Shown: positions 6,971 to 44,709, counted from the first letter of the stretch. The stretch is 55,575 nt of DNA from Gemmatimonadaceae bacterium (GCA_050733535.1 JBOHTH010000114.1:1-55575); one strand, 5' to 3'. The notes: generated by a model not told the origin, from the letters alone. Numbers and translations are program-made.

Positions 6971-7636
6971 TCACGGCGCGACGTTGACGGTGAGGCCGTT
7001 CGACGACACGCCGCCGGCGAGTGCCTGAATCTCGGTCGTCCCAACCAGGCCGGCCGTGATCAGACCGCTGCTCGAAACCGAAGCGGCACCGGTATTGGTC
7101 GATGCCCACGAGAACGTCACGCCGCCCAAGACGTTTCCTGCCGCGTCCCTCGCGACGGCCTGCGCTTGCATCGTGGAAAGCGACGTCATCGAAGACGAAG
7201 GGGCGGTCACGGTGATCGTCGCGACCGGCGCTGCGACGACTGAAAGCGCAAATGCGCTCGACGTGACGGCGTCCACTGCTGCTGTGATGTTCGCGTTGCC
7301 CGGGCCCACGCCGGTCACCATTCCGACGGCGTCGACCGTGGCGACGGAGGGATCGCTCGAGGTCCAGGCGAACGCCGCCTCACTGAGCGTGTCGCCCGCC
7401 GCGTCGAGTGCCACGGCCCGCAGGGGCAACGAGCCTGCCATCTCAACCTCAGCGGCGTCGGCGCTCACCACGATGCGTGAAAGCGTTCCCGGCGTGCCTG
7501 ATGTGCCCGTCGTTCCTGTTGTGTCCGTGGCGCCCGGTGTGCTCGGTGTGCCGGCGTCCGTCGGTCCGACGATCTTGGCGCCACCCGCCGCGCACCCCGC
7601 GAGGAGAAGCAGCACGACGACGGCGCCGGGCGGCAC
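6971..7636 (-). CDS. lipoprotein with two bacterial Ig-like (Big_2) domains
   Basis: Has a lipobox LLLLAGC after an in-frame GTG at 7636, a T/G/P-rich linker, then two repeats of the pattern L.A.A.DAAGN.L....F.W.SS....A.V...G.VT..G.G.A.ITA. The 313-aa track ORF extends upstream with no better start. Confidence 0.6.
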   Translation of the reverse strand: MPPGAVVVLLLLAGCAAGGAKIVGPTDAGTPSTPGATDTTGTTGTSGTPGTLSRIVVSADAAEVEMAGSLPLRAVALDAAGDTLSEAAFAWTSSDPSVATVDAVGMVTGVGPGNANITAAVDAVTSSAFALSVVAAPVATITVTAPSSSMTSLSTMQAQAVARDAAGNVLGGVTFSWASTNTGAASVSSSGLITAGLVGTTEIQALAGGVSSNGLTVNVAP

Positions 7637-7733
7637 GCGTTTCGCATGAGCAAAGGGCTTGATGTTGGTGGTAGAGTTCGTCTTCACGATGCTGTCTCCC
7701 GCGTCGACGTTCAACGCTCTCTGGAGGGAAACG

Positions 7734-8312
7734 ATGTCGTACACACGTCGAGCATGTGTCGCTGCGATCGGCCTGATCCTCTTCTGCACCGCGACCGCCG
7801 CGGCACAGTCCGCACAAGCCGTTTCATTGCAAGTCTCGGGCCTTGCTGGCGCAATCACGTTCAGGGATACGCTGCAGTTCGGAACCGGTGTCGAGGCACA
7901 GCTTCGGTTCAATCACGTGCTGGCGTCAGACGGAGGCGTACTTTCCATCGGAGTGGGTGCTCAATACACGCATCACTCGTTTGCCGAGGGCCAGAACTTC
8001 GATGTGGACGGCGCGTTCGTCGAACCCCGCTACGCGTTCGCGCTGTCGAGCGAACGATTGTTCCCGTACATCTCGGCGCGCTTCGCCATGCTGCGACAGT
8101 CGAGCAATGTCGTCGACGCCAGTTACGGCTACGCGGCCGGGGGAGGCGTTGGGATCGGCTATGCACTCGGCCGCAACCTGAACCTCGACATCGGCGCCGC
8201 AGTGCTTGTGCAACAGTTCGGGCACACGCGGATCACCGCGAGCAGCCAACCGTACGCCTTCGGCACGATGCCCGGCTACGCGCTCAAAATCGGCCTCAGC
8301 CTGGGCCTCTGA
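7734..8312 (+). CDS. small outer-membrane beta-barrel protein (OmpW/OmpA-barrel-like)
   Basis: GGAGGGAA sits 4 nt upstream of the ATG at 7734. The signal peptide ends TAAAQ. The sequence has alternating hydrophobic strands and ends in a C-terminal beta-signal-like stretch, YALKIGLSLGL. Confidence 0.55.
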   Translation: MSYTRRACVAAIGLILFCTATAAAQSAQAVSLQVSGLAGAITFRDTLQFGTGVEAQLRFNHVLASDGGVLSIGVGAQYTHHSFAEGQNFDVDGAFVEPRYAFALSSERLFPYISARFAMLRQSSNVVDASYGYAAGGGVGIGYALGRNLNLDIGAAVLVQQFGHTRITASSQPYAFGTMPGYALKIGLSLGL

Positions 8313-36494: not shown

Positions 36495-36905
36495 CTAACT
36501 GAGGTTCTTCGTTAGCTGCGACGGCTTTGCTCTGGGGCCGCGAAGGTCGGCGGCGTGGCGAACCCTCGAGTGAAGCGAGCTCAGCATTCGCATAACCAAG
36601 TCCGTGCGGGCATCCAGTCTCGCGTAATCCGACTTGGACAGCACTCCGAGGTCGACGGCGAGTTGCAGATGGTACGTGAGTTCGAACGCGGACGCGAGCG
36701 CGATTCCGAGGAAGCGCGAAAGTTCACGCGAGCCGGCGTGACCGCAGCCTTCGGCAATGTTCGCGGGAATCGAGGCCGCGGCTCTGCGAATCTGTGAGGT
36801 CAGTCCCGGAAACTTCCTCTCCGGCACGTTTACCGTCGCCGCGTAGATGAGCAGCACGAGTTGATGCGATTTGTTCCAAACAGTGAGTTTCCGAAAATCC
36901 TGCAT
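36495..36905 (-). CDS. four-helix-bundle protein (TIGR02436; formerly called 23S rRNA intervening-sequence protein)
   Basis: Contains F.KL.VW.K.H.L...IY, QIRRAA.SIPANIAEG..... and F...A..S..EL...L.LA.DLG, which is the classic pattern. Local GC is visibly lower than in the neighbouring genes. Confidence 0.8.
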   Translation of the reverse strand: MQDFRKLTVWNKSHQLVLLIYAATVNVPERKFPGLTSQIRRAAASIPANIAEGCGHAGSRELSRFLGIALASAFELTYHLQLAVDLGVLSKSDYARLDARTDLVMRMLSSLHSRVRHAADLRGPRAKPSQLTKNLS

Positions 36906-37072: not shown

Positions 37073-38162
<1,090 letters not shown>

Positions 38163-38173
<11 letters not shown>

Positions 38174-39350
38174 CCGCCGGCGCGCGCAGCCGGTGGGCCG
38201 CAGCGCGTGCAAGGCGAACCGGCTGCAGCGCGAGCACGCGCAGGAGGCGGATCGGGTAATACAGCACGACGAGCCACGCCGGCAGCCTCACGAGTTCCCA
38301 CTCACGCGGGGTCGGCGCCAGCACGCTCAGCGCGATGTACCGGGCGCGATCGCTCGCATGGTCCATCATTCCCATGTTGAACCGGTAGGGCTGGCCGGTC
38401 GACACCACGCCGGCTTCGAGAGCCCTCACGACCTGCGCCGCGCGTGCCGCCGTGCGATCTTCGTCCGCGAGCGCCGCGAGGCGCGCGGAGAGCGGTGCCC
38501 CAAGCACATCATGCGCGAGTCGCAGCGCCAGGCTCAGCGCACGCGCCGATCCGTTCGCGTTCGCGCGCTCGATGAGCAGCTCCTCGTCGGCGCCCACCCG
38601 CGTCAGCAGCTGCGCGAACGCCACGAGCCATTCCAGCCGTTCCCACTGGTGGCGGGCGCCGTGCATCGCCTGAAGCAGAAGCTGATCTGCATTGTCCGGG
38701 CTCAGCGCGGCAAATCCTGCGAGCTCAATGCGTATCGCGCGTGCGAACACTTCTTCGGCTGGAATCGACCACGGATATCGCGGCGCCGCGAACCGCCAAT
38801 GCAGCTCCACGGGCACTCCGGCGTCCCGCGGCGAATACACGAAGTGGCCGAAGCTCCGCTGGAGCGCGCGCTCCTGTGCCGGCGACATCGCCGACGCCGG
38901 TGCGTAGCCCGCACGCACGAGCGTCTCGCGCGCGCGCTCGATGTCGTCCGGACGTACGACCACGTCGAGATCGACCGAGTCGCGCACGCCAAGCTCGCCG
39001 TACGCCGCCAGCGAGAGCGCCGGTCCCTTGAACGGGAGCGCCCGAACACCGTCCTCGTCCAGCGCACGCAGAAGCTGCGCAAGCTGCTGCGTGCGCGCGA
39101 GTGCGCGCGCCGCAATCGTGACCGTCTCCTGCATCACGCGCCCGGCGCAGTCGGGGGGTGACGGCGCGCGCGCGGCGCCGAGCACGCGCTGCGCGTGCGG
39201 GATGAGCCGGTGCCAGCGCGCGAGTTCAAGCCATTCGGTCCAGTCCACCGCGGCGGCCGCGCGCGCGCGAACCATGTCGAGTTCGCCGTTCGATGCGTCC
39301 CACGTGGCGCAGGCGAGCAGCAGGCCGTACGCGGGGCGCGAAACGCTCAC
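38163..39350 (-). CDS. PF14907-type (NTP_transf_5) uncharacterised nucleotidyltransferase; lasso-cluster tailoring candidate
   Basis: Contains LLLACA....DW.EWLELARWHRL.P and ALPFKGPALSLAAYGELGVRDSVDLDVVVRPDD...A...L...GY, the pattern of the nucleotidyltransferases that accompany HPr-kinase-like genes in RiPP clusters. The GTG at 39350 forms a GTGA overlap with the kinase stop. The 3' end overlaps the ychF 3' end by 11 nt (convergent). Confidence 0.7.
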
Positions 39351-40306
39351 CCGCGCACGACTCCGGCGATCGCGCGCACGAGATCGCCGATGCGCACAGG
39401 ATTGGTGTGCGGCGTGGCGCGCGCGACCTGCACACCCTGCAGCAGGTGAGCGATCGCCGCGAATTCCTCCGCACGCATGCGATCGTCGAGCAGGTAATTC
39501 GCGTAGCTGTTGGCCGCAATTTCGACGAACGCCTCTCCGGGCGGCACTCGCTCCATTCGCGGCGCGTCGGGCGCGTCGCTCCGCGGGGCGAGCAGCACCA
39601 CGGCGCCCAGCCGGGCAGCCTGCTGGCACCACGTCCACCCGTGGGCGCGGACCCGGAGGGCGCGCTTGTCCCATGTGGGCGTCAGTCGTGGCAGCGCACC
39701 GTTCGTGCCGAGGAGGATTTCCTCCGCATCGCGCCAGACGCGCAGGTGATCGTACCCGGGCATCGCCATGGCCGCGCCGTCGTGCACGCGGACTGCCGTC
39801 ATGTCGTCAGCGAGTACGCCGAAGCCCGCGGAGGCGAACGCGCCGGCTGTGGTGCTTTTCCCCGCTTCGGCGGGTCCGCACAGTGCGATCGCAATGCCAT
39901 CCACCACGACCGCGCTCGCGTGAAGGCACAGCACGCCCATCAGGCGCTGCGCGAACCCCAGCACGGGGCCGAGCAGGTAGGTCTCAGTGTCCGCGAGCGT
40001 CGACGACGGCGCCCACGTCGCCCACAGCTCGCGCCCATCGCGCGCAATGTGAAACTCCGTCGCGTCGGCGTAGCGCAGCCGGAATCCCTTGGCGCACTCA
40101 TGCACGACCAGTGTCTCGTCCGGCGTTGATTCGGCTGGCGGCGTGCGATATCTCACCGCGGCGCCATCGGCCGCAGCGTGGTGCCATGGGGGCACGTCGT
40201 CGAGCGCGATCGTGACGTCGGGCACGGCAAACGGCGGCGCGTCGGGCAGTCCGAAGAGCGCGAGGTTGGACGCGAACGTCAGCCCGTAAATCGAATAGGC
40301 GGGAAT
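39347..40306 (-). CDS. HPr-kinase/phosphorylase-like (HprK C-terminal-like) peptide kinase; lasso-cluster tailoring candidate
   Basis: Contains LHASAVVVDGIAIALCGPAEAGKSTTAGAF (P-loop in the HprK-like context). The first canonical start is the GTG at 40225. The in-frame upstream sequence IPAYSIYGLTFASNLALFGLPDAPPFA looks like the conserved N-terminus of this family and is preceded by GGAGG-7nt-ATT at 40306. The 5' end is therefore given as 40306, provisionally. Confidence 0.65.
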   Translation of the reverse strand: MPAYSIYGLTFASNLALFGLPDAPPFAVPDVTIALDDVPPWHHAAADGAAVRYRTPPAESTPDETLVVHECAKGFRLRYADATEFHIARDGRELWATWAPSSTLADTETYLLGPVLGFAQRLMGVLCLHASAVVVDGIAIALCGPAEAGKSTTAGAFASAGFGVLADDMTAVRVHDGAAMAMPGYDHLRVWRDAEEILLGTNGALPRLTPTWDKRALRVRAHGWTWCQQAARLGAVVLLAPRSDAPDAPRMERVPPGEAFVEIAANSYANYLLDDRMRAEEFAAIAHLLQGVQVARATPHTNPVRIGDLVRAIAGVVRG

Positions 40307-40346
40307 GCCGCGCCCTCCCTGTCGACGGACGACCCCGCCCTCCCGC

Positions 40347-41336
40347 TCACCTGCGCGCCCCGGCGCGCTCCGCTGCGCTCAGCTCGCGCAGGCGCTCGAG
40401 CGAGACGAGATGTGAAGCGAGAGTCGACTGGCGGAACGAGACGGAGTCCGTGCGCGGCGCGCCTCGAGTCAGTGTCGAATCCCAGCCCCAGAGGTACTCG
40501 CCGTTGATGCAGGTGGCGGTAAGCGCCACTGTGAGGCGATCTCCCGGGATCGTGCGTAACGGACGCTCGAACGGAAAAAAGGCCTGTCCATACAGCGCGC
40601 GCGGCGCTAACGGCGAGTTCGAGAGCGTCACGCCGAATCCGAAATCGGCCTCGAACCAGATCGCGAGGCCGTCCGCGACGCTGTCGTGCGCAAAGGTCCA
40701 CTCGGCATGTCCCACGGCGTTCGGCGAGTCGATCGTCGCGTAGTCCAGTGTCGTCCAGTGCACGCCTGCGCCGATCAGGTCGCCGGCGCTGACGCGGCCG
40801 CCATACCACTCCGAACGAACGCGCGCGGCAATGGCGCGCCGGTCGATACCGTGTGGACTGTCACCCATATCGGCATGATCGCGACGCCAGTTCTCGGGCG
40901 CCGTACACGGCGCAGCCCACAGTGCGTCACTCTGGGGCACCAGCGTCGCACCCGGCCGCACGAGGCGCGTGCGCGCGTCCACGAGCGTCGGGATGTGTGC
41001 CTCGAACAGCGGCAGTACTCCGCGCAGGTCGCTCAGGAGCACGTCGCCTTGCTCGGGCAGCGTGACGCGGCGCGAGTCGTCGCGGATGAACGTGATGCGA
41101 TCGGCGCAGCCGTTGTCGGCGGCGAGTTGCGCGGCGAGTTCGACCGCGGGATTCAGCTCGATCGCGTACACATGCCGCGCGCCAGCGCGGCACGCGGCCA
41201 CCGCGAAATAGCCGACACCGGTGCCGATCTCGACCACGGCGTTCCCCGGCCGGACGGCCAGCTGGATTGCCGAGAGGTACGCCGCGGTTCGCGCCGGATC
41301 GGCGAACATCGAGTCGTAGTCCGGAACATCATACAC
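40347..41336 (-). CDS. class I SAM-dependent methyltransferase, PRMT-like architecture (Rossmann domain plus C-terminal beta-barrel-like domain)
   Basis: Has motif I VVEIGTGVGYFAVAACRAGARHVYAIELNP, a post-I acidic residue and a ~200-aa C-terminal extension. The GTG start at 41336 lies 34 nt after the precursor stop. Confidence 0.7.
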   Translation of the reverse strand: MYDVPDYDSMFADPARTAAYLSAIQLAVRPGNAVVEIGTGVGYFAVAACRAGARHVYAIELNPAVELAAQLAADNGCADRITFIRDDSRRVTLPEQGDVLLSDLRGVLPLFEAHIPTLVDARTRLVRPGATLVPQSDALWAAPCTAPENWRRDHADMGDSPHGIDRRAIAARVRSEWYGGRVSAGDLIGAGVHWTTLDYATIDSPNAVGHAEWTFAHDSVADGLAIWFEADFGFGVTLSNSPLAPRALYGQAFFPFERPLRTIPGDRLTVALTATCINGEYLWGWDSTLTRGAPRTDSVSFRQSTLASHLVSLERLRELSAAERAGARR

Positions 41337-41370
41337 GACGCGGTACCTGCCGGATCAATCCTCGCGCGCC

Positions 41371-41556
41371 TCAGCCCGTCTTGGAGGTCATCATGCTGCC
41401 GCCATCGGCTTTCATGCTCATGTTGCCGACGGTGCGCGTGAGCGCCGCGACGTTGCCATAGACGTGCAAGCGCGGGGGAACGTAGGGCTTTCGCGCCGCG
41501 GCATTCGACGGCGGCACCCGATCCGTCTCCATCCTGTCGTCCTCTCGGCGTTCCAT
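41371..41556 (-). CDS. lasso peptide precursor (61 aa): MERREDDRMETDRVPPSNAAARKPYVPPRLHVYGNVAALTRTV / GNMSMKADGGSMMTSKTG
   Basis: The ATG at 41556 is preceded by GGGGAGGG at 8-nt spacing and lies 5 nt after the cyclase stop. The leader carries Y-V-P-P-R-L-HVY-G (YxxPxLx3G, the RRE-binding motif) and a Thr at -2. The core starts with Gly and has Asp at position 8. Confidence 0.7.
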   Translation of the reverse strand: MERREDDRMETDRVPPSNAAARKPYVPPRLHVYGNVAALTRTVGNMSMKADGGSMMTSKTG

Positions 41557-41560
41557 GGTT

Positions 41561-43252
41561 TCACCCTCCCCTGATTGACCGCGCTGCGGGCGATCGTTCG
41601 AGATTCCGCAGCCACTGATCGAGGACGAATACGCGGCGCACGGCAAGGACCTCGTCCACCGACCCTGTTTTCAATGTATCCGCGACGCTTCGAGTGTCAA
41701 CGAACTCGCGCACGGCGTCGCCGAGCGTCGGCTGATGCGCAGCAGCGCTCCAGCGCGCCGCCTGTTCCTCAAAAAATCCGCGGAGCGGTTCCTTCGGCCG
41801 CGTCAGCACTTCGTCAGGCAGTTCACCGCGAAACGCGCGGCGTACGAGCTCCTTCCGCTGGCACCACGGCACCGGTGGTATGGAGAAGACGAACTCCATG
41901 ACCCGCACGTCGAGAAATGGCCAGACAATTTCCAGCGGCACCCCCGTGTACGCGGGCTGCGCGGACTCGAGCATACCCTGCCATATCGGGTCCGCCAGGT
42001 ACCGGACCGCGTCGGGCCGGGTTGCGTGCGGCACCGTGCTCGGCAGCGCAGGCAGCCGCGCGCGGGCGTCCCGCCGAATCCAGCGCCAAACCCTGTCCGC
42101 TCGCGGTACGAATGGCGCCAGAAGTCGGCGGCGCAGCCAGAGGCCCAGATGGGGATGATGACGATGAGAAATGGTGTAGCTCAGCACGCGGCGCAGGATG
42201 TCGTGCACGGGCCAGCTGCGCAGCATTGTCAGCAGTCCCGGCGGACGAAAGAGCGCGTCACCGTCTTCGCCGCTCAGCAGCACCGGCGCGACGGACGAAA
42301 TCTGCCCGAGTTGCCGCACCCAGTCACGCCATTCCGGCTCGTCGAGCGGTTCTGGCGTTCGAAACGCCGTGTCGTCCGGGTCCATGAACGGCGCGGGCTC
42401 TGCGCGAACCACCTCATGCGCGATGCCGAGCGTCGCCGCGACCGCGGCCGCAAGCCGGTTTTCATCCGGAGGCTGCGCCGCCCCTGCATCGTTCGTCCAC
42501 GCGCTCAGCCGGGTTGCCGGCGCCACGCGGCGCGCCGTCGCCGCGATGCTCGTCGAGTCGAGCCCGCCGCTGAGCAGGATCGCAGCACGATCCGTCCGCA
42601 GGCGGTCGCGCACCGCCTCGCCAAGTACATCGCGAAAACGCTCGACGTACTCGTCGTCATGCCCGACGCGGAGCCGTGCCGGGACCGGAAACGACCAGTA
42701 CTTCCGCGGCAAAATCGAACTCGAGTCGTCGCGAACGACAAACTGATGCCCCGGCGGAAGCCGCCGGACGTCGGCGAACGACGTCGTTGATGTGTCGGCG
42801 TTGTACCCGTGCTGCAGGAACGAGACGATCGCCGGTGCGTGCAGTCGCGACGAAACGCGCGCGCGTGCCCGCACTTCATCGAGCACGTTGCTGCACACGA
42901 ACGTGCGTCCTATCTCTGCCCAATATAGGGGGCGCACGCCGAGCGCGTCGCGCGCGCAGAAGAGCGTGCGCTGGCGATGGTCCCAGAGCGCAAAGCTGTA
43001 GTCGCCGATGAGCCGTTCGGTGGCGGTCTCGCGCCAGGCGGTCCAAGCGGCGAGCACCAGTTCCGCGTCGGTGGCGCTGTTGCCTGTGGCGACGCCTGCT
43101 CCGCCAAGCGCGTCGCGGAGCGCGTCACGCCCGTCGAGCCGCACGTGACCGACAATCCAGCTCCCGGCGCGCACGTCGGCTATGCTGCTTGCGGCTGTGC
43201 TGGCACTCACGGGCCCGTCGCCGCGGAGCAGTTCGGCGACGAACGTGCTCAC
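41561..43252 (-). CDS. lasso peptide isopeptide-bond-forming cyclase (asparagine synthetase B-like, McjC family)
   Basis: Has the PP-loop AILLSGGLDSTSIAA, an AsnB-like N-domain without the Cys1 nucleophile (GDYSFALWD, FCARDALGVRPLYW). The GTG at 43252 forms a GTGA overlap with the B2 stop. Confidence 0.85.
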   Translation of the reverse strand: MSTFVAELLRGDGPVSASTAASSIADVRAGSWIVGHVRLDGRDALRDALGGAGVATGNSATDAELVLAAWTAWRETATERLIGDYSFALWDHRQRTLFCARDALGVRPLYWAEIGRTFVCSNVLDEVRARARVSSRLHAPAIVSFLQHGYNADTSTTSFADVRRLPPGHQFVVRDDSSSILPRKYWSFPVPARLRVGHDDEYVERFRDVLGEAVRDRLRTDRAAILLSGGLDSTSIAATARRVAPATRLSAWTNDAGAAQPPDENRLAAAVAATLGIAHEVVRAEPAPFMDPDDTAFRTPEPLDEPEWRDWVRQLGQISSVAPVLLSGEDGDALFRPPGLLTMLRSWPVHDILRRVLSYTISHRHHPHLGLWLRRRLLAPFVPRADRVWRWIRRDARARLPALPSTVPHATRPDAVRYLADPIWQGMLESAQPAYTGVPLEIVWPFLDVRVMEFVFSIPPVPWCQRKELVRRAFRGELPDEVLTRPKEPLRGFFEEQAARWSAAAHQPTLGDAVREFVDTRSVADTLKTGSVDEVLAVRRVFVLDQWLRNLERSPAARSIRGG

Positions 43253-43695
43253 TCCGACCCGAACGTCGCGAGCACGCGGTATCGGTCGTGCGGATCGTCG
43301 CCGGTGACGAGCACGCCGCCGCTCTCCACCCATGCATGCGCGTCGAGCGTGACGTGAGATACGCCATCCGCCCGCGCATGAGCGACGCCTATGCTCAGGC
43401 GCGCCCGTGCTCCGCCGTGCAGCAACAGACGCTCGGCCACCAGCGACTGCGCGAGGCAGCTGCTTCCCGGCAGCGACCTCGACGCACGGAGCACCGCGCG
43501 GCGGACGGTGCGCGGCCACGCGTCATCCGCGTGCGCGTCCGTTGGCACACGGCCGACGACCATCGCATGGAGGCGGTCGAACGGGAGCAGTCGGAGCCCC
43601 GTGCGCGTCAGGGCAAGCCAGGCGACGGCACGCATCGCGAGCATCTTTTCCGCGGCAGGAAGCCGCGCAAAGTTACGGAGCCGCGCCGGGAACAA
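43249..43695 (-). CDS. lasso peptide biosynthesis B2 protein (transglutaminase-like Cys protease, leader peptidase)
   Basis: Contains LLPFDRL, SCLAQSLVAERLL (the Cys), L.IGV and DAHAWVE (the His). The start is uncertain: TTG at 43695, ATG at 43644, or ATG at 43758/43770 with a long overlap of B1. Confidence 0.8.
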   Translation of the reverse strand: MFPARLRNFARLPAAEKMLAMRAVAWLALTRTGLRLLPFDRLHAMVVGRVPTDAHADDAWPRTVRRAVLRASRSLPGSSCLAQSLVAERLLLHGGARARLSIGVAHARADGVSHVTLDAHAWVESGGVLVTGDDPHDRYRVLATFGSE

Positions 43696-43984
43696 CTTCG
43701 AGCAACTCGCGGGAGAGGAGATCGCCGGTGAGCGCGAGCAGATCGTCGAGCGCGACATCCCGCCCAACATCGAATTCGCGGCTCACGGTGTCGGCGAGAT
43801 CGCCGAGCGCCGTCGGCTGCTGCACGAGTTCCCAGATCCGCGCGCCGGTCCCGGCGAGGCCGTAATAGACGCTGTCCTTCAGGCCGAGGATAACCGCTTC
43901 CCCGGCGAGCTGGGTCGAGAGCTGGCTCCGGGATGCGACGACCCGCGTGTGCTCAGTGATGGTTGATCTCTCGAGTCCGGCCAT
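43673..43984 (-). CDS. PqqD-family RiPP recognition element (lasso B1 protein)
   Basis: Contains GEAVILGLKDSVYYGLAGTGARIWELV and DLLSRELLEV, the PqqD/RRE pattern. I chose the ATG at 43984; the track ORF's extension to 44065 runs into the palindrome. Confidence 0.8.
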   Translation of the reverse strand: MAGLERSTITEHTRVVASRSQLSTQLAGEAVILGLKDSVYYGLAGTGARIWELVQQPTALGDLADTVSREFDVGRDVALDDLLALTGDLLSRELLEVVPGAAP

Positions 43985-44050
43985 AGGGGGCAGTTTACCA
44001 ACAAGAGGGAAGAACAACCAGCGGCGGCAGGACGTAGGGGAAACCCATGA

Positions 44051-44179
44051 CCCCGAGCACACCACCCCTAGCCCAACACGCCGTCGCTGTTACCCATGAC
44101 GCTCAAGCCCAAACAGTTCCGCGTTCGGGGATATGGGTAACGGCAAAGGCGTGTTGGGCTAGGGGTTCTGCGCTCGGGG
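44051..44179. repeat. long imperfect palindrome (two ~47-nt arms, 35-nt centre) between the lasso operon and rpsF
   Basis: The left arm is ccccgagcacaccacccctagcccaacacgccgtcgctgttacccat. The right arm is atgggtaacggcaaaggcgtgttgggctaggggttctgcgctcgggg. The arms are roughly 85% complementary. Confidence 0.8.
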
Positions 44180-44201
44180 TTGTGGGTCTCTCCAACCATT
44201 C

Positions 44202-44230
44202 TTGACCCGCGGCTCGCTGTGAGCTAACTT
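44202..44230 (+). promoter_or_regulatory. candidate sigma70-type promoter of the rpsF-rpsR operon
   Basis: TTGACC (44202-44207), a 17-nt spacer, then TAACTT (44225-44230). This would give a ~110-nt leader before the AGGAGG-TTG start of rpsF. Confidence 0.4.
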
Positions 44231-44346
44231 CATTTGCTGTCAGGAAATAGTGGCCTTGTCCGACTGGGCGCCTGCCCGGCTGGAGCCACCCTCCTCCCGC
44301 GCTGGCAACCCGCGGGGGGCTATACGACCAAAGGAGGATTGCCGCA

Positions 44347-44709
44347 TTGTCTCGTGAATACGAGGCGGTGTACATCTTCGACTCTGCGCTCGAAGACGCC
44401 GCCATCAACGACAAGATCGCGAAGTTTCATGGGCTTCTGGGTTCAACTCAGGAGATCAAGCTCGACCACTGGGGTCGCCGCCAGCTCGCGTACAAGATCG
44501 GAACGCGCGAGACAGGCTACTACGTGGTCGCCCGCTTTCACGCCGAGTCGAAGACGCTTCCCGAGTTCGAGCGCGCGCTCAAGCTCGATGACGGCGTCGT
44601 TCGCTATCTGATCTCGGTGCACGAGCACGAGCTCGGTGCGCCGCCAATGACCGAAGAGCAGCTGGCCGCTCGCAAACAGGGAGACGATGACGATGACGAT
44701 GAGGACTGA
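44347..44709 (+). CDS. rpsF: 30S ribosomal protein S6
   Basis: Contains [18 protein letters not shown] and an acidic D-rich tail. The TTG start is preceded by AGGAGG. Confidence 0.9.

Follow-up and report, generated by a model that had tools for sequence, protein, structure and literature searches.

The 55,575-nt stretch of DNA analysed here (the window) carries, judged from its sequence, a real and intact lasso-peptide gene cluster in a Gemmatimonadota genome. The locus is likely to be a functional class-II split-B lasso operon of the phosphate-modified type, following the 18-mer pathway proposed below. Its product would most likely be an 18-mer closed between G1 and D8, with a phosphate and probably a sugar on Thr17 and with a methyl group as well; the topology, the cleavage site and the modification sites are what we infer for this product. 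The seven co-directional genes lie on the minus strand between 38163 and 43984, flanked by ychF and rpsF, and all of their reading frames are intact (Table 1).

Table 1. Features of the lasso-peptide cluster, in window coordinates.
Feature	Assignment	Position	Strand	Remarks
-10-like hexamer TAAACT	candidate leaderless promoter	43992..43997	-	7 nt before the B1 ATG at 43984, no Shine-Dalgarno between
B1	PqqD-like RiPP recognition element	43673..43984	-	103 aa, ATG start
B2	transglutaminase-like Cys leader peptidase	43249..43695	-	probable TTG start
C	Asn-synthetase-like macrolactam cyclase	41561..43252	-	563 aa, GTG start overlapping B2 stop (GTGA)
A	61-aa precursor MERREDDRMETDRVPPSNAAARKPYVPPRLHVYGNVAALTRTVGNMSMKADGGSMMTSKTG	41371..41556	-	4 nt past C stop, preceded by GGGAGGG
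Core of A	favoured core GNMSMKADGGSMMTSKTG	41374-41427	-	
MT	SAM-dependent methyltransferase, PRMT fold	40347..41336	-	329 aa, GTG start
K	HprK-like peptide kinase	39347..40306	-	about 319 aa, probable ATT start
N	PF14907 nucleotidyltransferase (PsmN/BsfN type)	38163..39350	-	395 aa, GTG start overlapping kinase stop (GTGA)

The sequence-only reading had proposed a complete split-B lasso cluster between ychF and rpsF, and both the profile matches and the leader motif agree with it: HMM searches placed the core reading frames in the PqqD, lasso B2 and Asn-synthetase/lasso-cyclase families. B1, taken earlier for a PqqD-like RRE, scored well above the cutoff with PF05402 (PqqD; 52.5 bits, cutoff 23.4) and matched NF033536 (lasso_PqqD) with an E value of 4.6e-13; orthologues are found in four related loci (L001, L009, L012 and L013). 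For B2, two models, PF13471 (66.2 bits, cutoff 26) and NF033537 (lasso_biosyn_B2; 74.2 bits, cutoff 33), agree with the catalytic motifs visible in the sequence, the Cys in SCLAQS and the His in HAWVE, as expected of the transglutaminase-like Cys protease that had been suggested. The description of C as an AsnB-like cyclase holds as well. It matched PF00733 with 109.9 bits and also GATase_7, and its best NCBIfam match is the lasso cyclase NF033535 with 211.8 bits, below the 525-bit 'exception' cutoff of that model; the SGGLDS PP-loop is present, and the N-terminus reads VSTF, without Cys1.

The arrangement of the genes recurs elsewhere. The synteny comparison recovered B1-B2-C-A-MT-K-N flanked by rpsF and ychF in L012, B1-B2-C-A-MT-K adjoining rpsF in L009, B1-B2-C adjoining rpsF in L001, and C-A-MT-K-N in L002. 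The rpsF/ychF site is kept for the cluster in other Gemmatimonadota contigs, where C-protein identity ranges from 79 % down to 47 %. With dN/dS values of 0.18-0.41 for every enzyme gene, the cluster genes are, by this sequence measure, under purifying selection. The cluster is far beyond chance, since the seven-gene block recurs in independent contigs with these dN/dS values. Both GTGA overlaps, at B2/C (43252-43249) and at the kinase/nucleotidyltransferase junction (39350-39347), are as first described; A starts 4 nt (AACC) past the C stop, where 5 nt had been given before. The B1-B2-C-A order had been described as not the most common layout, but in this cluster family it is usual for A to come after C. 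The 3' end of N overlaps the convergent ychF stop by 11 nt.

A family survey added 80 further loci, usually in the order C-A-K-MT-NT, with 80 unique precursors. By sequence, the cluster is part of a large family from uncultured soil bacteria; every member has the kinase, whereas MT and N are modules that some members lack. The earlier remark that an ABC exporter is absent was borne out by tblastn across the 55-kb window, where a search with an L014-type ABC ATPase and permease (E <= 1e-3) found none; relatives in other phyla carry ABC exporter genes. The only Rfam matches across the window were three tRNAs, all of them away from the cluster.

The most likely start of B2 in the sequence is the TTG at 43695, overlapping B1 by 23 nt, as TTG-TTC is kept at this point in L009 and the N-terminal segment encoded from it (RLRNF) in L003. 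The kinase is probably translated from AUU, its start being the ATT at 40306, 6 nt past a GGGAGGG. An ATT or ATC stands at the kinase N-terminus in five loci, where the upstream GGAG is also kept, and in L013 a stop codon lies just 4 codons upstream of it. The only canonical start, the GTG at 40225, was rejected, as it would remove a conserved N-terminal segment. Upstream of B1, the hexamer TAAACT was confirmed at 43997-43992. The idea of a leaderless transcript, to which the sequence-only reading had given low confidence, gains comparative support, as TA(A/G)ACT stands 5-7 nt before the B1 ATG in the window and in L001, L009, L012 and L013, with differing neighbouring bases. Transcription from this putative -10 box would probably yield a leaderless operon mRNA. 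A scan with the sigma-70 consensus did not pick up the candidate B1 promoter, for want of a good -35. An attenuator hairpin between A and MT was considered and discarded; the predicted structures differ among the window, L002, L009, L012 and L013.

The short reading frame A had been taken for a lasso precursor, and its leader motif, Y25-x-x-P28-x-L30, and an annotated homologue speak for this. Among six close homologues, one that is 77 % identical carries the NCBI annotation 'lasso RiPP family leader peptide-containing protein'. Matches to lasso_cyano and lasso_leader_L3 are weak, and NF033521 scored 16.7 bits, just below its cutoff of 19. Placing T42 at position -2 yields a core with an 8-residue ring from G44 to D51. 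This favoured core, GNMSMKADGGSMMTSKTG, has 18 residues and a predicted monoisotopic lasso mass of 1771.74; the 18-mer, which had been proposed before, is the better-supported reading of the predicted register. All 80 unique family precursors share the arrangement Y..P.L, nine residues, Thr, and an Asp 9 or 10 residues further on. Position 2 past the invariant Thr (T40 in the window) is rich in Thr and Ser and position 4 is mostly Gly, as one would expect if these were positions -2 and +1. If the core begins with Gly44, YxxPxL stands at -19/-16/-14, two residues beyond any family that we could document, and T40 falls at -4, not at -2. In the same type of register, the ring of L050 has only 6 residues.

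The precursor C-termini bear on the kinase. A Thr or Ser occurs within the last three residues of all 80 precursors, and in 74 of them the sequence ends in [KR][TS] and 0-3 further residues. This near-C-terminal residue is itself the C-terminal one in 15 members, as in the paeninodin type. Only 4 of the 80 precursors end in Ser; the window precursor, which ends in SKTG, is not among them. To judge from these sequences, the kinase acceptor seems to have shifted from the C-terminal Ser to a (K/R)-Thr close to the C-terminus. Lasso precursors are phosphorylated by HprK-like kinases ahead of leader cleavage (PMC9266682), and BsfB1 assists its kinase (PMC10368454). K itself matched TIGR04352 (HprK_rel_A) with an E value of 1.8e-11 and PF07475 with 2e-3, both below the curated cutoffs, so that we based its assignment on motifs and on its context in more than 80 loci. 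It has the LHASAV, GxxGAGKST P-loop and ADD motifs, with H129, K150 and D168 invariant in alignment A2, and the earlier naming of an HprK-like kinase is upheld by the invariant His-Lys-Asp-Asp motif together with the context. A PDB sequence search with the kinase for a solved relative returned no match. The assignment of N as a PF14907 nucleotidyltransferase stands on a score of 166.7 bits, far above the cutoff of 31.2; a DLD metal-binding motif of the DxD type was noted in its sequence, and orthologues occur in L002, L012 and L014.

The methyltransferase had been described as PRMT-like, which is correct for its overall fold and not for its arginine-binding active site. A phmmer search of the PDB found PRMT6 and PRMT1 structures (PRMT6 with an E value of 1.6e-21 over residues 3-260). 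The AlphaFold model (pLDDT 93) aligned in Foldseek to PRMT2, PRMT6 and PRMT1 with TM scores of about 0.8, and according to this model MT is a complete PRMT fold with a Rossmann domain and a beta-barrel. The GxGxG motif and the acidic post-I residue are kept. In the window copy, SDLRG...E replaces the active-site loop SEWMG...E, and ALY replaces the THW loop. Of 143 family members, 140 have Asp in place of the first Glu; the second Glu position is occupied by G, Q or E, the loop contains a conserved Arg (SDLRG), and THW is exchanged for x-x-Y-G-x-x-F-F-P. Compared with the known lasso methyltransferase families, MT reached only 20.7 bits with the PIMT model (cutoff 188), a Rossmann-level similarity, and matched no O-MT family. 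The MT family comprises 923 representative clusters at E <= 1e-30. Most members are extended at the C-terminus by some 55 aa, an extension missing from the window copy; when it was compared with RREs, Pfam PqqD gave an E value of 0.059 and hhalign against a B1 profile a probability of 35 % over 24 columns. Clusters with MT are somewhat richer in K-T and those lacking it in R-T. A search for the methyl acceptor by co-variation gave no candidate: no single core residue tracks MT, because L004 has MT and a precursor ending in NMVS, and L012 and L013 have MT and no ring Lys.

These observations have to be weighed against other readings of the same locus. In the canonical Y(-17)/P(-14)/L(-12)/T(-2) register, B2 would cut after T40-R41 and release the 20-mer TVGNMSMKADGGSMMTSKTG with a Thr1-Asp10 ring. 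The spacing of exactly +15 from Y25 to T40, the only fully invariant Thr across the 80 precursors, fits this register, which is also the only one giving L050 an allowed ring (8 residues), and the same rule placed the BsfA cleavage site, which was then confirmed in vitro (Duan et al., PMC10368454). However, the aromatic leader residue is documented at -15 in paeninodin-like leaders, at -16 for LPP and at -17 elsewhere (PMC13381572), so the distance to the cleavage site varies between families; the Gly at +4 and the Thr or Ser at +2 past T40 suit a cut two residues later, and the rings of the family would have 9 residues in about half of the members, 10 in about another half, or 11. To our knowledge, lasso macrolactam rings range from 7 to 9 residues, and rings of 10 or 11 have never been observed. 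We regard the canonical register in the window as unlikely. Its extension to the whole family, with 9-, 10- and 11-residue rings (Thr1-Asp10 in the window) and with small-residue tails that a phospho-glycosyl-Thr and a methyl group, the latter added by a PRMT-fold enzyme rebuilt for a non-arginine acceptor, would lock in place of bulky side chains, seems quite improbable to us. A comparably slim chance is left for a kinase acting on a ring or loop Ser (e.g. Ser47 or Ser54), with (K/R)-T serving otherwise, for instance in recognition by MT or N. BsfK, which phosphorylates Ser3 and shares <21 % identity with the C-terminal-Ser kinases, sets the precedent that such kinases need not act C-terminally (PMC10368454), and the window kinase is likewise remote from the curated HprK models. 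Against this, no ring or loop Ser/Thr position is kept across the 80 precursors, whereas the C-terminal candidate is universal, mostly preceded by K or R, and in the paeninodin-like members is the last residue.

It is still less probable that MT is a genuine protein arginine methyltransferase, acting on a precursor Arg such as R41 of the leader or on an unrelated cellular protein. The full fold with its similarity to PRMT2, PRMT6 and PRMT1, the second Glu (E112) retained in the window copy and the source annotations 'protein arginine N-methyltransferase 1' or 'L11 methyltransferase' would suit such an enzyme, but the double-E and THW motifs are replaced throughout the 143 members and the favoured core GNMSMKADGGSMMTSKTG has no Arg. 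Moreover, the MT family gene was inside a lasso cluster in three of three context look-ups, and in most metagenome loci that extend past it, it sits directly beside the kinase gene. Finally, we give hardly any credence to a silent or decaying remnant without a product. Such a reading could draw on the missing exporter, on the lack of a canonical kinase start and on the decayed Acidoferrales relatives (L006 and L007, with truncated cyclase). It is opposed by seven intact frames with dN/dS well below 1, by the retention of the block at one site across C identities down to 47 %, and by the conservation of the kinase ATT/ATC and its upstream GGAG.

In the favoured 18-mer pathway, B1 would bind the leader at Y25-x-x-P28-x-L30, and the kinase would phosphorylate the near-C-terminal Thr60 of the (K/R)-T motif on the linear precursor. 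B2 would then cut after T42-V43, and the ATP-dependent C would link Gly44 to Asp51, closing an 8-residue ring in the 18-residue lasso. The nucleotidyltransferase could subsequently put one or more hexoses on the phosphate, as PsmN does, and MT would methylate an acceptor that is probably not arginine. Bulky C-terminal groups were proposed as a lock by the authors of the pseudomycoidin study (PMC6993621). Here, too, bulky C-terminal modifications may form a steric lock below the ring, a role suggested by family tails that are rich in small residues.

Speculatively, a conserved chromosomal position, a missing exporter, a first gene that would be leaderless and a kinase probably initiated at AUU might point to a housekeeping or regulatory function and away from an antibiotic one. 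The interest in lasso peptides lies in their high stability as scaffolds, on which every further tailoring enzyme allows more to be built. The locus is one clean and complete example of a large, apparently uncharacterised soil family of Acidobacteriota and Gemmatimonadota. Knowing the target of its methyltransferase would extend the range of lasso modifications by a new one, and knowing where its leader is cut would show whether the 7-9 ring-size rule holds generally.

Paeninodin, pseudomycoidin and Bsf already provide cases of tailoring by a kinase and a nucleotidyltransferase (PMC9266682, PMC6993621, PMC10368454). Just like the window, the pseudomycoidin cluster psmCAKB1B2ND of Bacillus pseudomycoides has split B1/B2, a cyclase gene followed at once by A, a kinase of the HprK-like kind and an 'NTP transferase' of the PF14907 type. 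Its kinase phosphorylates the precursor, and PsmN, which needs a DxD motif, attaches one or two hexoses to that phosphate. The window N has DLD. PsmA, however, ends in Ser and has the WxxP leader of Bacillota instead of SKTG and YxxPxL, and an ABC exporter is encoded in the psm cluster but a methyltransferase is not, whereas the window has a PRMT-fold MT and no exporter (PMC6993621). The paeninodin kinases PadeK, ThcoK and SyanK share the His-Lys-Asp-Asp motif and act on the linear precursor before cleavage, but their acceptor is an 'extremely conserved' C-terminal Ser, in place of which the present family has (K/R)-Thr followed by 0-3 residues (PMC9266682). The Bsf cluster from Bradymonas sediminis, of Gram-negative type, resembles the window in its B1, B2, C, A, K and N, in the ribosomal-protein genes on one side, in a precursor not ending in Ser and in a predicted G1-D8 ring; it differs in that BsfK targets Ser3, in the leader Ile at -2, in an ABC transporter and in having no methyltransferase (PMC10368454). 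SAM-dependent lasso tailoring is likewise known from StspM/LasF, which O-methylate the C-terminal carboxyl, and from the PIMT homologues of cellulonodin-2 and lihuanodin. Those enzymes are mitomycin O-MT relatives or of the PIMT type, whereas the window MT has a two-domain PRMT fold (PMC9266682). It has this fold and the GxGxG motif in common with the eukaryotic type I enzymes PRMT1, PRMT2 and PRMT6, from which it departs by a double-E loop that now reads D...x, by the absent THW loop and by its RiPP operon context. What sets the locus apart from the known systems is the non-Ser precursor ends of its family, a PRMT-fold methyltransferase with replaced arginine-binding motifs, and a window free of an exporter.

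Seven co-directional, closely packed ORFs occupy the minus strand between ychF and rpsF. Profile searches assigned B1, B2 and C to the PqqD, lasso_biosyn_B2 and Asn_synthase/lasso cyclase families, as proposed in an earlier sequence-only reading, and the PF14907 assignment of the last gene was borne out. The motifs quoted in that reading (SCLAQS, HAWVE and SGGLDS), the absence of Cys1 from C, the two GTGA overlaps and, 7 nt ahead of the B1 ATG, the TAAACT hexamer were all confirmed in the sequence, with the gap between the C stop and the start of the precursor gene A corrected from 5 to 4 nt. The cluster had also been described as lacking an ABC exporter, and our search of the 55-kb window for the ABC exporter of related clusters found no homologue. 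B2 most likely starts at a TTG codon, giving a 23-nt overlap with B1, because the TTG-TTC start is kept in L009, a locus found through a precursor homologue, and the RLRNF... N-terminal segment is kept in the Acidobacteriota homologue L003.

Positions of genes and sequence signals (in the window unless another locus is named)
Feature	Position	Strand	Assignment or description
136-aa ORF	36495-36905	-	between pth and ychF
ychF	37073-38173	+	PF06071 and PF01926
N (last gene)	39350-38163	-	PF14907, 166.7 bits
Apparent kinase Ile start codon	40304-40306; L002 ~1990; L009 ~3994; L012 ~7948; L013 ~8171	- (window)	ATT/ATC
MT	40347-41336	-	329 aa, PRMT-fold
C	43252-41561	-	Asn_synthase 109.9 bits + GATase domain; top NCBIfam match lasso cyclase NF033535
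TTGACA-16-TACATT	41673-41700	-	promoter-like, 10/12 matches
B2	start TTG 43695 (most likely)	-	Transglut_core3 66.2 bits; NCBIfam lasso_biosyn_B2 74.2 bits (cutoff 33)
B1	43984-43673	-	PqqD, 52.5 bits (cutoff 23.4)
TA(A/G)ACT hexamer	43992-43997		TAAACT in the window
rpsF upstream region	44100-44346; L009 1-130		near-identical in the two loci
rpsF	44347-44709	+	PF01250
Broken precursor, L004	9732-9956	-	frameshift
Apparent cluster remnants, L006 and L007	L006 7363-10619; L007 ~7087-8270		Acidoferrales MAGs
MT homologues	L006 8455-9402; L014 7001-8143
Extra genes, L013	10258-12865		MBOAT family; 313 aa

The precursor A (MERREDDRMETDRVPPSNAAARKPYVPPRLHVYGNVAALTRTVGNMSMKADGGSMMTSKTG) is encoded by a 61-aa ORF with GGGAGGG ahead of its start. 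With two of the NCBIfam models for lasso precursors, its score fell slightly under the cutoff, and a protein search returned six close homologues, one of which is annotated by NCBI as a lasso leader-containing protein. A wider family of 80 loci, chiefly from soil, was collected by scanning metagenomes with an alignment of seven kinases and annotated by tblastn together with a seven-precursor HMM; the kinase K is present in every locus because it was the query. The precursor lies immediately upstream of the kinase in nearly all of these loci, and the commonest gene order is (ABC) B1 B2 C A K MT N. The position of the precursor after the cyclase, previously described as not the most common layout, is instead the rule in this cluster family, and the window differs from the usual order solely in having the methyltransferase gene MT ahead of K. 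MT and N are each found in some of the 80 clusters and missing in others, independently of one another.

Common to the 80 unique precursors is an invariant Y-x-x-P-x-(L/V/I) followed by nine residues and a Thr, and, counted on from this Thr, an invariant Asp 9 (42 precursors), 10 (35), 11 (one) or 8 residues (one) further along, usually with Gly-Gly next. Near the C-terminus, 74 of the 80 carry [KR][TS] and then zero to three further residues (KT 47, RT 21, KS 5, RS 1); the remaining six all have Thr or Ser among their last three residues, and only four of the 80 end in Ser. In the gammaproteobacterial locus L004, the precursor is broken by a frameshift (...LTQTNTINDES*, with a second frame ...SMMKADGGPTMGGMNMVS), while in its relative L005 the frame reads through to ...MNMIS. 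K, C and A were seen in both loci, B1 and B2 were absent within 8 kb, and MT is present in L004 and absent in L005.

The 18-mer GNMSMKADGGSMMTSKTG, with a ring closed between G44 and D51, is probably the core peptide. This register gives a ring of eight residues in the window and of seven to nine in every family member except L050 (six). The residue two positions after the invariant T40, which would become -2, is T/S-rich across the family, and the residue four positions after it, which would become +1, is Gly in ~55 % of the members and mostly A, T or S in the rest. Positions flanking lasso cleavage sites normally look like this, T/S-rich at -2 and Gly-rich at +1, and the cut two residues past T40 is favoured. 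A possible alternative takes T40 itself as the canonical -2 residue, placing YxxPxL at -17/-14/-12. This rule was applied to BsfA by Duan et al., who went on to verify it (PMC10368454), and L050 fits only this register; however, it would require a ring of 10 residues in the window and of 9-11 across the family. Moreover, the spacing of the aromatic leader residue differs between lasso families, being -15 for the paeninodin-like type and -16 for LPP leaders (PMC13381572), which argues that leader spacing is family-specific. The calculated monoisotopic mass of the lasso starting at G44 is 1771.74, rising to 1851.70 with phosphate, 2013.76 with a hexose added and 2027.77 with a methyl group as well; the corresponding series for a core starting at T42 is 1971.85, 2051.82, 2213.87 and 2227.89.

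With the core beginning at G44, Thr60 corresponds to core Thr17 and is the best candidate for the phosphate acceptor, because the sole conserved hydroxyl residue in the core across the family is the near-C-terminal Thr, which is the last residue in 15 members. In published lasso kinases, the acceptor is the C-terminal Ser, called 'extremely conserved' (PMC9266682), with the exception of BsfK, which phosphorylates Ser3 (PMC10368454). The window kinase fell under the cutoff on every HprK model searched, and a search for relatives with solved structures found none. It keeps the residues proven essential in lasso kinases (PMC9266682), namely His in LHASAV, the P-loop Lys in GAGKST and the Asp-Asp pair. 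N, the PF14907 protein, appears to belong with PsmN and BsfN. In PsmN, which attaches one or two hexoses to the phosphate, a DxD motif is required (PMC6993621); the window protein has DLD.

The kinase gene itself appears to begin with an ATT/ATC codon. The sole canonical start in the window is GTG 40225, and the frame stays open 5' of it, encoding I-P-A-Y-S-I-Y-G-L-T-F-A-S-N-L..., a segment that aligns with the N-termini of homologues from other phyla. All five Gemmatimonadota loci have ATT or ATC four codons ahead of the conserved Y-x-x-Y-G-L and lack a canonical start in that frame there, whereas homologues from other phyla have ATG, GTG or TTG at the matching position. In L013, a locus found through an MT homologue, the ATT has a stop just four codons ahead of it, excluding any canonical alternative. 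The conserved ATT/ATC, the open upstream frame and the stop codon in L013 point to ATT 40306 as the start in the window; GGGAGGG lies 6 nt ahead of the codon in the window and in L002, a close Gemmatimonadota relative.

The methyltransferase MT matched the structures of PRMT6, PRMT1 and CARM1 over both domains (E 1.6e-21), and its AlphaFold model (pLDDT 93) superposed on PRMT2, PRMT6 and PRMT1 with a TM of ~0.8. The family comprises 923 representative clusters at E <= 1e-30, many of whose members carry the annotation 'protein arginine N-methyltransferase 1' or 'L11 methyltransferase'. Among 143 family members, the double-E loop has an invariant Asp, within S-D-L-R-G, in place of its first Glu; its second Glu is unconserved, and THW is swapped for x-x-Y-G-x-x-F-F-P. 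MT has the PRMT fold but lacks the defining features of arginine methyltransferases. Most homologues (proteins P0008-P0157 and those of L006 and L014) are ~380 aa long, including a C-terminal extension of ~55 aa with a faint resemblance to PqqD/RRE (Pfam E 0.059; hhalign 35 %), which may be RRE-like. The window protein lacks this extension, which was lost in the Gemmatimonadales clade to which it belongs (329-337 aa). The substrate loop holds a conserved Arg and the gene has a fixed place beside the kinase, so an attractive guess, though no more than a guess, is that methylation takes place on an anionic group close to or at the phospho-Thr C-terminus.

Scanning species-representative genomes with the cyclase identified the Gemmatimonadota relatives L002 (~80 % identity, order C-A-MT-K-N) and L001 (47 % identity, order rpsF-B1-B2-C), and more distant clusters in Acidoferrales and one Haliea-like gammaproteobacterium. 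Through the context of MT homologues, we found L012, arranged exactly as rpsR-rpsF, B1 B2 C A MT K N, ychF; L013, with the same arrangement plus additional genes; and L014, with C-A-K-MT and with N, B2, B1 and an ABC transporter on the opposite strand. The cluster of L009 also adjoins rpsF. Compared with L002 or L012, every enzyme gene of the window has a dN/dS of 0.18-0.41. The shared rpsF/ychF synteny and these ratios show the cluster to be an old, vertically kept and selected trait of this Gemmatimonadales lineage rather than a chance run of ORFs.

Several observations were made in the same loci. L006 and L007 resemble decayed clusters with the cyclase cut to its first ~115 residues; in L006, this remnant adjoins a methyltransferase without its SAM-binding N-terminus, B2 and N are kept, and the precursor and kinase are absent. 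Between the lasso cluster and ychF, the latter called as two pieces, L013 carries an MBOAT-family gene and a gene for a 313-aa protein without a Pfam match, which could be extra tailoring genes or unrelated cargo. At the position of the 136-aa ORF of the window, L012 has a PF05635 (23S rRNA intervening-sequence protein) gene. The sequence preceding rpsF is near-identical in the window and L009, whereas the adjacent region upstream of B1 has diverged; the former could be a conserved r-protein leader, and it matched no Rfam family at the gathering threshold.

In the window, L001, L009, L012 and L013, TA(A/G)ACT precedes the B1 ATG by 5-7 nt, although the surrounding bases differ, and none of the five has a Shine-Dalgarno sequence between the hexamer and the ATG. 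This spacing suggests that the first gene is read from a leaderless mRNA, an idea previously held with low confidence and strengthened by the five-locus conservation. TGG precedes the hexamer, as in an extended -10 element, in the window and L009 only, and a promoter consensus scan did not call the TAAACT site before B1. The same scan flagged the promoter-like TTGACA-16-TACATT within the 3'-terminal part of C. This site, 117 nt ahead of the precursor ATG, may serve as an internal promoter boosting precursor expression; as it lies within coding sequence, its conservation is inseparable from protein constraint.

We would expect antiSMASH, RODEO and PGAP to flag the locus as a lasso cluster. A limited literature check turned up no earlier description of the product or its ring register, of Thr as the acceptor or of the methylation chemistry. 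The same limited search found this type of methyltransferase unmentioned in two lasso reviews (PMC9266682, PMC8498205), and a recent description is possible. Judged from its genes, the cluster has all the checkable defining features of a split-B lasso BGC and, by analogy, would work like the phosphate-modified subfamilies of paeninodin, pseudomycoidin and Bsf. It differs from these subfamilies in lacking their C-terminal-Ser and exporter features and in adding a methyltransferase.
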